Source: Longimicrobiales bacterium (lineage in GTDB: Bacteria; Gemmatimonadota; Gemmatimonadetes; Longimicrobiales; Gaopeijiaceae). Taken from it: a stretch of DNA of 64,000 nt. How positions within the stretch are numbered: the stretch's first letter is position 1; each line of letters starts with the position of its first letter. Below are positions 10,065 through 24,625 of the stretch, one piece after another. The notes beneath the pieces are model-generated. The model saw only the letters and a list, made by a program, of their open reading frames with translations. It made no database searches and was not told the DNA's origin. Where the stretch lies: contig CBDCNQ010000005.1 in assembly GCA_965219445.1 (NCBI GenBank), positions 992,001-1,056,000 on the forward strand, given 5' to 3'. Position numbers and translations under genes: made by a program.

Positions 10065-10813
10065 AACACGACGAATACCACCGCCAGTTCGCCGACGCCA
10101 TCATCGAGCAGATCCGCCAGGGCACCGCGCCGTGGCAGAAGCCCTGGGGGCCGGGCGAGCGCGTGCTCCCCTCCAACGTCGATACGGGCCGCTCCTACAG
10201 GGGCGGCAACAGCCTGCATCTCGCCGCCGTGGCCCAGGAGCGCGGCTACGGCGACGTGCGCTGGGGCACCTACCGCCAGATCCAGGCCCGGGACGGACAG
10301 GTGCGCAAGGGCGAGCAGGGCACTCGCATCCTCTCGTTCCAGGACCACCGGAAGATCGCCGTCAACGACGAGCGCGGACGGCCCAAGAGGGACAACGAAG
10401 GCAAGCGCGTTTACCGCCACGAGCGCCTCAAGGCGCCCGTCGTCCGCCAGTACACCGTGTTCAACGCCGAGCAGGCCGACGGGCTCCCGGCCCGGCCCGC
10501 GCCAACGGCCGAGCCGCTCTGGAAGGTGCACCAGCAGGCCGAGCAGGTCCTCGAGGACAGCGGGGTGCCCGTCCGTCACGTGGCGGGCGACCGCGCGTTC
10601 TACAACCTGAACCGCGACGAGATCGTGCTCCCGGAGAGGGGACAGTTCCCCTCCGCGAACCACTACTACCAGACGGCGCTACACGAGCTGGGCCACAGCA
10701 CCGGCCACCCGGAGCGCATGAACCGCGAGACGCTCACCCAAGGGATCTCTGAAGGGTTCGCCTCGCCGGCCTACGCGAAGGAGGAGCTCCGCGCGGAGAT
10801 CAGTGCCATGATG
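10061..10813 (+). pseudogene. ardC: ArdC-family ssDNA-binding/zincin antirestriction protein, 5' part (interrupted)
   Basis: APWQKPW, YRGGNSLHL, YTVFNAEQ, LHELGHSTGH, EELRAEISAMM; continues at 24350. Confidence 0.92.
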
Positions 10814-10957
10814 GACACATAGAATCCAGCAGCGTTCGTAGTCATCCGGAGTATTCCACAAACTACCGTATTACCAACGCTTTATAAGTATCCACACCGA
10901 TCTTACCGACTCACAATATCTCTTTACATCCACCTTAATCCCCTATATTATGTGGGG

Positions 10958-12163
10958 ATGAGTACTGTAATAGACACGGCCGCCGCGCCACGGAAAACCA
11001 AGCCCAGGGGTCGCCATCCCTATCAGGCTCTGTCGGCTGCCTTCGTGCGCACAGCCCCGCCGGGGAGGCACGCGGACGGCAACGGGTTGTACCTCTTCGT
11101 CCAGCCGAGCGGAACCCGGAGTTGGATCCAACGCCTCGTCATCCGGGGCCGGAGGCGCGAGCTCGGACTCGGCAGCGTCGTCCTGGTCTCGCTCGCCGAA
11201 GCACGTGAGAAGGCGCTGGCCAACCGCAAACTGGCCCGCGAGGGCGGCGACCCGCTCGCAGAGAAGCGGCGCTCCCAGGGGGTCCCGAGTTTCGCCGAAG
11301 CCGCCGCGAGGGTGGTGGAACAGCAGCAGGCCGGTTGGCGCGATCCGAAATACCCGAAAATCTGGCTGAACAGCCTGGAGCGCTACGCATTCGCGCGCAT
11401 CGGCAAGATGCCGGTCTCGGAGGTGACGAGCGCTGACTTGCTCGAGGTCCTCGGGCCTATCTGGCACGTGAAGGCGCCCACGGCCCGAACCGTCCGCCAG
11501 CGTATGCATGGGGTGCTGGAATGGGCCGTGGCGATGGAACTCCGGACCGACAACCCCTGCGACCGGATCGGGCGAGTGCTCGGCCCTCAGAACGACGTCG
11601 TGCAGCACTTCCGGGCGTTGCCGCATGGCATGGTGGCATCGGCCATTCAGACGGTAGGGGCTACGGATGCGCCCCGGGTCCTGAAGCTGGCCTTCGAGTT
11701 CCTGGTGCTGACGGCGGCGCGGTGGAACGAGGTGCGCGGGGCCGCGTGGGAGGAGATCGATCCGAGAGAGGGTGTGTGGGCGGTTCCCGCCACACGCATG
11801 AAGGCCAAGCGCGAACATCGGGTTCCGCTATGCGGCCGCGCCATCGACATCATCGACGAGGCCCGGACGCTCGGCGACGGCAGTCCGATTGTCTTCACCA
11901 TCGGCGACGGGCAGCCGATCATTGAAAAGCATCTGCGTCGATTGCTCGCAACGCTCGAGATCGCGGCCGTGCCGCACGGATTCCGGTCGAGCTTCCGGGA
12001 CTGGGCGTCCGAGGAAACTGACCATCCCCGCGAGGTCGTCGAGGCGGCGCTGGCGCATGTGGTCCGGAACAAGGTCGAGGCGGCCTACAGGCGAACGGAC
12101 CTATTCGAGCGCCGGCGCCGGCTCATGGACGACTGGGCGGCCTATATAGCCGGCGAAAATTGA
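10958..12163 (+). CDS. P4-like integrase (arm DNA-binding domain plus tyrosine recombinase)
   Basis: HADGNGLYLFV, LTAARWNEVR, VPHGFRSSFRDW, ALAHV, AAYRRTDLFERRR. Confidence 0.95.
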   Translation: MSTVIDTAAAPRKTKPRGRHPYQALSAAFVRTAPPGRHADGNGLYLFVQPSGTRSWIQRLVIRGRRRELGLGSVVLVSLAEAREKALANRKLAREGGDPLAEKRRSQGVPSFAEAAARVVEQQQAGWRDPKYPKIWLNSLERYAFARIGKMPVSEVTSADLLEVLGPIWHVKAPTARTVRQRMHGVLEWAVAMELRTDNPCDRIGRVLGPQNDVVQHFRALPHGMVASAIQTVGATDAPRVLKLAFEFLVLTAARWNEVRGAAWEEIDPREGVWAVPATRMKAKREHRVPLCGRAIDIIDEARTLGDGSPIVFTIGDGQPIIEKHLRRLLATLEIAAVPHGFRSSFRDWASEETDHPREVVEAALAHVVRNKVEAAYRRTDLFERRRRLMDDWAAYIAGEN

Positions 12164-12474
12164 GGACGGAAGGCTGCACCGGTGTGTTGACCAGCCGCCG
12201 TGCCTTGATCGCCGTTCGGTTTCCAATTTGCCCGGTTGGCTTTACTCCTCTATCTGTGCTTCAACGCGTAGACTTCCGGCAGCATCGCGTCTGGAGCACG
12301 GAGCCTTGGCTGTACTAGCCATGATCGACTGGCGTAACATTGGAAAAGGGCCAGGATTACGAGCTGAGGACCGAATAGAGGCACACCCGAGGCGCTGCGA
12401 AAGTCTGGCTGTCGAGCACATCCAGGCATCGGAGGACCGTAAGTCTATGTCAGGAGAATTGCAGAGGTAAAATC

Positions 12475-13026
12475 ATGGAAGAAAGAGGGTGGCTCGATTA
12501 TTTGGTAGCTGTAGGAACGATAGCGACTCCGATTATCGTTTCACTCTTCGGTGTGATGGTTTGGAAGTACCAGCAAGCCATAGAGCGAAGAATACGACTA
12601 GAAGAACAACTTCGAGACGATAGAATTGAAACGTATAACCAAATTCTAGAACCGTTCATTATCCTGCTAATGAACGATGAGGCCTGGGCATCTGATCCCA
12701 AGCACAGGAAGAAAGACAAGTTCACCGTGGGGACGTCAAAACTGTTATCTCTGGAGTATAGAAGGACATCCTTTAGACTTTCGCTCATTGGCTCAGACTC
12801 CGTGGTTTCTTCTTACAATGATCTAATGCAGCATTTTTTTCAGGCACCAGATACTTCTTCATTTTCTGTAAACGATCTCAAAGAAGTGGTCTCACTGCTG
12901 GGAAGTTTTCTCTTGGAAATCAGAAAGAGTATGGGCAACGAGTCTACTAAGATTGATAAATGGGGTATGCTCGAGTGGTTTATAAAAGACATCAGAAATG
13001 TTCGGGACGATCGTTCGAACAACTGA
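12475..13026 (+). CDS. Low-GC membrane-anchored hypothetical cargo protein
   Basis: N-terminal TM helix; clearly AT-richer than the flanks; RBS present. Confidence 0.75.
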   Translation: MEERGWLDYLVAVGTIATPIIVSLFGVMVWKYQQAIERRIRLEEQLRDDRIETYNQILEPFIILLMNDEAWASDPKHRKKDKFTVGTSKLLSLEYRRTSFRLSLIGSDSVVSSYNDLMQHFFQAPDTSSFSVNDLKEVVSLLGSFLLEIRKSMGNESTKIDKWGMLEWFIKDIRNVRDDRSNN

Positions 13027-22924: not shown

Positions 22925-23503
22925 ATGACATCCAGGAACGCCGCTGGAACGGCTGCTACGGTCCTTGCGAGCCTTTGCCTCGTCACTTGCAACTCACTTG
23001 TCGCCCAGGATGTAGGCAATCGTGTCCGCGTGACAATCGGTGGAGACATACTGACTGGCGATGTCTTCGAAACAAGCGACGCAGGATTCACTTTGGTTCT
23101 TTCGGAGGAGGAACTGATCGAGGTCTCCGACGCGCAAGTCGAGAAGCTGGAAGTCAGGACGTGCTGTGTCGACTACGCGTGGGTCTATATGACGTTAATC
23201 GGCGGGGGGGCGGGGGGCTTGTTGGGGGTGTTGTGGGACTTCTTGAGTGGTAACTATTCCTGCTCGGAAGCTTCGTTCCTGTGGTGGGAGGACGACTCGT
23301 GTGAAATTCACGGCAACGGTTTCGAGTGGGGAGTTCTCGGCGGAGGCGTGGTCGGCTTTGTTGTGGCAAAGACGGCTTTTAAGGACATGTGGGAGATCAT
23401 CCCGCCGGGTCGGCGTGGTGCGACACTTGGTCCCCTGGTGGACATCGGATCCGGCCCCAACGGGAACACCGCCATGATTGTGGGCGCGCGCATTCGCTTC
23501 TGA
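22925..23503 (+). CDS. Exported/membrane hypothetical protein (paralogue 2)
   Basis: AGGAG RBS; GNRVR domain, Gly-rich TMs, C-terminal GARIRF. Confidence 0.75.
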   Translation: MTSRNAAGTAATVLASLCLVTCNSLVAQDVGNRVRVTIGGDILTGDVFETSDAGFTLVLSEEELIEVSDAQVEKLEVRTCCVDYAWVYMTLIGGGAGGLLGVLWDFLSGNYSCSEASFLWWEDDSCEIHGNGFEWGVLGGGVVGFVVAKTAFKDMWEIIPPGRRGATLGPLVDIGSGPNGNTAMIVGARIRF

Positions 23504-23963
23504 TCGACATCTCTCGTGGACCTGCCTCGCTTTCCCGGGCGGTAACCACATGTCCAAGTCGATTTCTTGGTTTCCGGGAACGCTTCAATCCACCAACGCC
23601 CTTCCCACGGTGAGGTAATAAACCGTCTGCTGCCGCTCGTAGGTCACGAGGGCCAGCCCCTCGGACTGCGCCTCCAGGAGCACCCGGCTGAAGATGGCTC
23701 CCAGTTCGCGGGACTTGCGGCCCGAGACCGACTCCAGCGACAGGTCCACGATCCGCTCGACGTGCGGCGCGAGTTCCGCGGGCACGCGGGCGAGAATCTC
23801 CGGCGGTCGCTCGGCTGGTGGTGACCCCACAGCGCCTACGGCGGCCTACCCCCGGCTCCGGAGACGATAAAACCATCCGCTTGGTTCCTTACAATGCCCC
23901 AACTTCTAGGACCGCCGATGGCCCAAGGTCTCACATAGGAAGTGGTACCGTGCCTGGGGGCAC

Positions 23964-24122
23964 GTCATCGACTGGACGCTGCGCGAGAATGTCAGAGCCA
24001 ACCTGCGGCGATTGGTCAAGCGCATCCTGCGCAAGCACGGCTACCCGCCCGACAAGCGTGATAAGGCGACACGGACGGTGCTCGAACAAGCGGAAGTGCT
24101 ATCTGCTGGCTGGGCAGCATAA
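23964..24122 (+). pseudogene. hsdR: Type I restriction subunit R extreme C-terminus
   Basis: [45 protein letters not shown] (read manually, not in the ORF track). Confidence 0.8.
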
Positions 24123-24343
24123 CACCGGATCGGCCAGCGCGGATTGGAACATACCGATCTCACGCCCGGCCGCGCGGCCTCGGTTGATCACTCAGAACTC
24201 GTCCACGGACACCACGGACTTCTCATACGGTCGGATGGATTCCCGTTCAGAAAGCGGGAGTGAATGAGGGAATCACGTCTGATATATAAGCAGTAAGTCT
24301 ATTAATATCAGGTATTTATAGATGTTTAGCAGTCGTCAGTGCC

Positions 24344-24625
24344 ATGATGACGGGCGAGCGCGTGGGCGTCGGCCATGACCCGAGCCGGGGCGCCGCGTAC
24401 GTCGAGGGCTGGATCGCCGCACTCGAGGAGGACCCGCGCGAGATCCGCCGCGCCGCCGCCGACTCGCAGAAGATCTCCGACTTCGTGCTCTCGCGGCACC
24501 GCGAGCGCGAGGCCGCGCGCGAACCCGCGGCCGTGGCCGCGACCCGCGCGCCCGCGCCGGGGCGAATCGTCCATCCCGTGCCGCCGCTCCCCGTGCCGCA
24601 GCGGACCTTCGGGCCGCGCCGCTGA
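24344..24625 (+). pseudogene. ardC: ardC 3' part
   Basis: MMTGERVGVGHDPSRGAAYVEGWIAALEEDPREIRRAAADSQKI continues EISAMM. Confidence 0.9.

Follow-up and report, generated by a model that had tools for sequence, protein, structure and literature searches.

Why should an element that needs another element's conjugation apparatus settle inside a gene of that very element, and why in one gene rather than another? The question is raised by a 64,000-nucleotide stretch of a Longimicrobiales bacterium (the window: GCA_965219445.1, contig CBDCNQ010000005.1, positions 992,001 to 1,056,000; G000:C5:992001-1056000, where G000 is the genome of the window), in which an integrative mobilisable element (IME) of 13.5 kb interrupts ardC, a predicted antirestriction gene of a resident integrative and conjugative element (ICE). 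That the insert is an IME was confirmed by its own integrase and by attachment (att) ends with an empty-site counterpart. I think it probable that it belongs to a lineage of IME integrases using a fixed ardC site of resident ICEs, likely for docking at a place that signals a transfer helper while leaving the mating apparatus unbroken.

The ends of the element and its target codon

The element is enclosed by an exact 14-bp direct repeat, as the original prediction, made from the window sequence, had stated; at two or fewer mismatches the 14-mer has no third match within the 64-kb window. The features that define the insertion site are as follows.

10061-10822, plus strand: ardC 5' part, codons 1-251, then two new codons and a stop (PF08401, PF18818)
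10800-10813, plus strand: attL core, 14-bp direct repeat; the putative 7-bp overlap is core positions 2-8
24336-24349, plus strand: attR core, 14-bp repeat
24350-24625, plus strand: ardC 3' part, codons 252-342 (PF18818 positions 88-125)

Taking the insert out restores a continuous ArdC, again as foreseen: the joined halves form a stop-free frame of 1029 nt (342 aa) that is 99.7% identical, with no indels, to an empty sister copy in the same genome (G000:C5:931219-932247), itself intact and with one copy of the core. The host ArdC has ArdcN and MPTase domains with HExxH...E, and the joined protein aligns with R388 ArdC (6I89) at an E-value of 2e-41, the HExxH and EE ligands lining up. It thus resembles R388 ArdC (PDB 6I89/6SNA; ArdcN and zincin domains, HExxH and EE ligands, in passages of PMC7213743) but differs in a C-terminal tail of ~40 aa, in its ~14 whole or partial copies in G000 and in an antirestriction activity that is predicted only. 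The break in ardC follows codon 251, nine residues beyond the EE that aligns with E228/E229 of R388, and the 5' part retains the ArdcN domain, HExxH and EE. Judged from the frame, the integrated state would encode a 253-aa product with the whole single-stranded-DNA (ssDNA)-binding domain and all metal ligands, but would lack the final helices of its protease domain. A single-sequence AlphaFold model of intact ArdC reached a pLDDT of 41 and was not used, and a consensus scan found no outward promoter at attR.

The insertion was said to be site-specific, and the flanks of other integrases support this. Among 314 family genomes (two candidates were scored per genome, and arm counts are lower bounds), the left arm was found in six, in five of which it lies in ardC at the identical codon, and the right arm in eight places in seven genomes, all eight followed by the 3' part of ardC. 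An additional, diverged left end in ardC of genome G525 and a third right end in G000 were found separately; overall, 6 of 7 left ends and 9 of 10 right ends in genomes lie at a single ardC codon. The left-junction pattern had no match in viral contigs. Four elements are complete, with both ends in ardC: those of the window (13.5 kb), L136 (10.4 kb; the matches in G495 belong to it as well), G417 (16.8 kb; locus L253) and G525 (11.3 kb; locus L267). They share the codon but not the allele: the integrases are 92-96% identical in nucleotides and the ardC 5' halves 86-89%. Since the alleles are more diverged than the integrases, and the window allele is 99.7% identical to its empty copy, the insertions were independent. 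This bears on another explanation, which I consider very improbable, namely that one old insertion was inherited with the ICE or that assembly went astray among near-identical ICE copies. The three right ends in G000 do share near-identical ardC 3' halves, which leaves their mutual independence uncertain, and the window and C1 share the second junction at 25785 and may be duplicates. However, the divergence of target alleles across genomes largely refutes a single old insertion, and identical junctions are present in genomes that were assembled separately and represent five or more genera.

Several observations weigh against the docking reading. A sister integrase in G493 (90% identical in amino acids) lies off target in an ABC-3 permease gene, and in two of four sequencing runs the left end is joined to sequence other than ardC, so that targeting is not strict. 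The codon region of insertion lies at the 50th percentile of conservation among 17 empty ardC alleles, and the idea that the insertion hits the best-conserved stretch of ardC was rejected on that ground. Sister clades break the essential genes virB4, virD4 and virB11, so a dispensable target is not required in the family. The attP joint of the circular form was not found among the matches listed in the Logan contigs of six runs (X9-X14), contigs that drop rare forms, and an AlpA-like excision factor was found in none of five elements with the ICE AlpA as query. Activity of the element is inferred from independent insertions only.

The off-target cases also speak for an integrase of relaxed specificity, which would land in ardC just because, where ICE copies abound, this gene offers the most frequent near-match to a short core; a helper would play no part. 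The two junction motifs outside ardC that the runs yielded have no match in G000 or the collected loci. Neighbouring clades adjoin multicopy host genes: in a survey limited to the upstream side, homologues at 65-77% elsewhere adjoin PQQ-domain genes (43 of 102 upstream fragments), insertion sequence (IS) genes, IME relaxases and Ig/LRR genes. I nonetheless find this explanation improbable, given the concentration of left and right ends at one ardC codon and the presence of a relaxase in all six ardC elements tested.

As for the crossover, the two ends at the G493 site share just seven core bases (positions 2-8), and seven bases is the usual overlap length of tyrosine recombinases. Variants within this heptamer match at both ends of every complete element. 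The heptamer ends in GCC in each of the ten junction sets at ardC whose core is undamaged and in 88 of the 150 empty sites listed (a hand count; for seven carrier genomes the listed count is 25 of 36), a bias suggestive of a need for overlap identity. The integrase would recombine a circular attP with attB through the 7-bp overlap, and excision should restore the ardC frame in the window. Both G417 and G007 have a deletion within the ardC 3' part, so excision would not restore ardC there.

Anatomy of the element and its transfer helper

Within its ends the element contains the following.

10814-10957, plus strand: left arm, 93-96% conserved in five other genomes
10958-12163, plus strand: P4-family tyrosine integrase, intact frame, with an in-frame GTG at 10952
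12475-13026, plus strand: low-GC open reading frame (ORF), 183 aa, no family match
13211-13693, minus strand: HSDR_N_2 domain ORF, left over from a methyltransferase-type fusion and not related to the HsdR of the sister
14140-14250, minus strand: putative oriT-like block 2, a 111-bp repeat present in many places in the genome
14345-15844, minus strand: MbeA-like relaxase, 499 aa (PF03432; NF047848 MbeA below cut-off)
14389-14601, minus strand: MbeD ORF overlapping the relaxase (PF04899 above cut-off)
14611-15105, minus strand: MbeB-like ORF overlapping the relaxase, no family match, assigned by position alone
15834-16172, minus strand: MobC/MbeC relaxosome accessory protein (PF05713, PF21983)
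16230-16310, plus strand: putative oriT-like block 1, upstream of mobC
16682-19801, plus strand: cargo Big_2/LRR protein, 1039 aa
19800-23967, strand unspecified: IS1380-like and IS3 remnants, LRR and LysR/HNH fragments, two ORFs without an above-cut-off family
23967-24122, plus strand: last 51 codons of a type I hsdR, 100% identical to L136 HsdR
24190-24335, plus strand: right arm, 79-93% conserved in sisters

The integrase at the start of the element is intact and P4-like, as claimed: it carries PF13356, PF22022 and PF00589 (Arm-DNA-bind_3, Phage_int_M and the catalytic domain), its R, K, HxxR, H and Y motifs are legible in the sequence, its PDB relatives include 3JTZ, a 'CP4-like integrase', and its match to NF007246 is under that model's cut-off. 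A sigma70-like promoter at 10923-10951 stands immediately before the integrase ATG; it stops 6 bp short of that codon, which suggests a leaderless transcript.

The mobilisation module had been read as mbeCABD with an oriT. MobC, the MbeA-like relaxase and MbeD hold up by family, whereas the MbeB-like ORF is placed by position and the oriT is putative, suggested by a conserved hairpin-plus-motif block in two inverted copies that flank the module. The block may resemble the ColE1 nic site. The window relaxase has a three-histidine motif; ColE1 MbeA has an HEN motif. Copies of the 111-bp block, ~96% identical, are spread across the genome, often distant from any relaxase gene. The predicted lack of a type IV secretion system (T4SS) was borne out, none of the ICE backbone proteins matching inside the element, and the Pfam scan found no primase. 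By gene content, then, the element has its own relaxase and a putative oriT and neither T4SS nor coupling protein, as expected of an IME.

The host is a T4SS element of ~15 kb with the order alpA, virB2-3-4-9-10-6-8, a 498-aa ORF, virD4, virB11, ardC, a 295-aa ORF and a 104-aa ORF. I call it an ICE on the basis of its T4SS and coupling protein; the 295-aa ORF (a Replic_Relax lead of 0.90 in Atlas, no Pfam match) is a candidate relaxase. It occurs as many broken copies in G000, and the window holds the following parts.

7580-10060, plus strand: left part of the host ICE remnant, with the 3' part of virD4, virB11 and a small ORF (Pfam TraG-D_C, T2SSE)
24647-25785, plus strand: right part of the remnant, with the 295-aa ORF (Replic_Relax-like lead) and the 104-aa ORF
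59177-64000, plus strand: start of the one uninterrupted ICE copy found in G000 (virB2, B3, B4, B9) that runs on past the window; candidate helper in trans

The copy that hosts the IME is a 4.7-kb remnant (7580-25785) without virB2-virB10 and so cannot be the helper of the window element. It is cut at 7580 and 25785 by the att-like ends of another element. These ends (7441-7579 and 25785-25923) are inverted and 92% alike; virD4 and the 104-aa ORF each contain one of them, and both junctions were found again elsewhere in the genome. The copy starting at 59177 is the single uninterrupted one found in G000, and ICE copy L006 is complete for T4SS and coupling protein (VirB2-11 type). The notion of a satellite inside its helper ICE therefore does not describe the window, whose host lacks the T4SS, but may describe G525 and G417, where the host T4SS genes lie upstream in order and the IME sits within an otherwise near-complete T4SS element.

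For the docking reading this suggests the following course. The integrase would be specialised on a site found only where a transfer helper exists. A relaxosome of MobC and the MbeA-like relaxase would nick the element's oriT and use the VirD4/VirB channel of an ICE, in cis where the host ICE is whole (G525, G417) and in trans for the window element, and cis-transfer should survive insertion into ardC. Passages of PMC7213743 report that ardC of R388 is dispensable if the recipient lacks hsdRMS; ardC would suit a satellite because it is needed only against the type I system of a recipient.

Defence cargo and the antirestriction question

The ardC branch is a carrier of defence islands with exchangeable cargo, and the window element is a decayed member. 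An intact hsdM-hsdS-hsdR adjoins the right arm in L003, L136 and G417 (L253), G380 has a different type I system and a NucC-like gene, G007 has PbeA/PbeC and a methyltransferase adjoining the right end, and the off-target G493 has a type ISP system. The ardC-inserted IME of G525 (L267:9651-16747) carries a type I-G CRISPR-Cas system (cas3, cas8g, cas7, cas5/6) with 17 repeats. Among the ORFs scanned there cas1 and cas2 were absent, and its 16 spacers had no match in G000 (at up to seven mismatches) and merely 16-17-nt chance matches in the collected loci. G491 and G501 have decayed, and Pfam shows no defence family in them. Within the G417 element a reverse transcriptase ORF is nested together with integrase fragments (L253:14196-15419).

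Remnants of hsdR are found in the window and in L002. The claim that the window holds N- and C-terminal pieces of HsdR survives for the C-terminal 51 codons, which an IS3 end within the 19800-23967 stretch abuts. The pieces derive from different genes: the HSDR_N_2 ORF does not match L136 HsdR and is similar instead to the N-terminal part of type I methyltransferase fusions, and the view that both are one broken gene was rejected.

This cargo invites another explanation for the choice of site: ardC might be selected since its breakage shields the element's own type I restriction-modification (R-M) system, or ties the helper's antirestriction to excision of the satellite. Passages of PMC7213743 describe R388 ArdC as acting against type I HsdRMS. 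Among the cargoes of the ardC branch type I R-M is the most frequent, whether intact, of the different kind in G380, or as remnants. An R-M match no more than 11.2 kb from the integrase is also commoner at ardC elements (3 of 6) than at other G000 integrases (4 of 26) or at others (5 of 62), although the queries came mostly from ardC elements and bias the comparison in favour, kin are not independent, and one of the five 'other' cases is a neighbouring ardC element. Other facts fit poorly. The original prediction held that the insertion disables the antirestriction gene of the helper, and the evidence falls short of that: all nine carrier genomes retain 1-10 empty-site ardC copies, and the truncated ArdC keeps its metal ligands and the ssDNA-binding domain, which passages of PMC7213743 propose as the acting part in R388, where protease activity is dispensable. 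Moreover, ArdC works in recipients; the G525 element carries CRISPR-Cas and has no R-M match; a virB11-targeting sister has a full type II R-M; and sister integrases lie in other ICE genes, some likewise with R-M. I therefore regard selection for breaking ardC as possible but unlikely. The same doubt attaches to its reversible form, in which the integrated satellite would shield its own type I R-M, and its excision would return ArdC to the ICE for restricting recipients, with the satellite travelling along. If true, that knock-out would be a case of regulated gene integrity acting on an anti-defence gene, within a radiation that occupies most of one ICE backbone.

Sister integrases and known satellites

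P4-family integrases typically target tRNA genes. Of 27 P4-like integrases in G000, 11 begin 101-152 bp beyond a truncated ICE gene (ardC once, virB4 twice, virB11 once, virD4 twice and the 498-aa ORF five times), and one sits after an IS transposase. Siblings are 48-77% identical and lie at different coding-gene sites, and a tRNA-Ser gene is upstream only of distant homologues (39-44% identity; 14 of 187 rows). In a quick tree of 73 hand-picked rows (69 of the 187 homologue rows and four new ones), five ardC integrases cluster together with an SH-aLRT support of 97, G493 being their sister (100), and the remaining targets correspond for the most part to clades. The nearest 90% cluster of the radiation has 142 members. 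The ardC branch is thus one of an integrase radiation that uses multicopy protein-coding genes, not tRNA genes. Two further P4-family integrases of this radiation lie in the window, at 35665-37083 (truncated) and 55960-57288. ARAGORN reports a tRNA-Ser at 29013-29106, which is probably false, being inside a TonB-dependent receptor ORF on the opposite strand. A large sister clade in Vicinamibacterales (L160-L213) lies at the 3' end of PQQ-domain genes, found ~140 bp upstream of the integrase, with many per genome. Another (L058, L151, L153, L154) lies directly by the 5' part of MobA-type relaxase genes and possibly represents IMEs targeting IMEs.

Two known kinds of satellite come close. Passages of PMC5704250 describe streptococcal and clostridial IMEs (IMESp2907, Tn6104) in conserved genes of Tn5252-superfamily ICEs (traG/virD4, maff2, SNF2 helicase); like the element here, these are site-specific, carry a relaxase and no T4SS, and disrupt an ICE backbone gene, with several sites per ICE and mobilisation in cis or trans proposed. 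They differ in using serine integrases in Firmicutes, whereas here the integrase is a P4-family tyrosine recombinase, the named relatives are Gemmatimonadota and the host is of VirB2-11 type. Tyrosine-integrase IMEs lie mostly at gene ends or oriT in the same passages. Here, unlike in the Tn5252-gene IMEs, a tyrosine integrase splits a coding gene without replacement sequence (in the window element the stop comes two codons past attL), the gene that is hit is ardC and the cargo consists of defence systems.

The second kind is the helper-embedded phage-inducible chromosomal islands (HE-PICIs; Tommasini, Mageeney and Williams 2023). As far as passages of PMC10111431 describe them, these too have one integrase clade whose subclades each have a helper-gene site, no attP replacement sequence, off-target events and common truncated helpers. 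Their helper is a lambdoid prophage, targeted in a late gene, and AlpA and a primase are part of their gene set. The present element has a conjugative helper, owes its mobility to relaxase and oriT, and gave no AlpA match. On the best reading, the window element is a helper-embedded defence satellite that resembles both kinds and belongs to neither. Its mobilisation module has the ColE1 mbeCABD order given in passages of PMC5935869 (mobC, a relaxase with overlapping B-like and D ORFs, an oriT-like block upstream of mobC), but is chromosomal and integrase-linked, with a second, inverted oriT-like block downstream.

Nothing relevant was found in the literature on ardC/DUF1738 as an integration site or on conjugative elements of sponge Gemmatimonadota, most subscription papers being outside the scope of the search; large att-site tables could list ardC. 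The portions of PMC12084326 that were available hold no 'ard' word, and those of the PMC12884075 supplement no ardC term. The element widens the range of helper-embedded satellites, which now includes IMEs with a tyrosine integrase in T4SS elements of Gram-negative type, and makes ardC a further known attachment site. Its pairing of defence cargo with a gene family that counters such systems makes testable whether satellites pick helper-disarming sites, and the sibling integrases form a ready-made set in which shifts of integrase target can be studied. The named relatives are Longimicrobiales/Gemmatimonadota, and five of the sequencing runs that contain the stretch are labelled sponge metagenomes.

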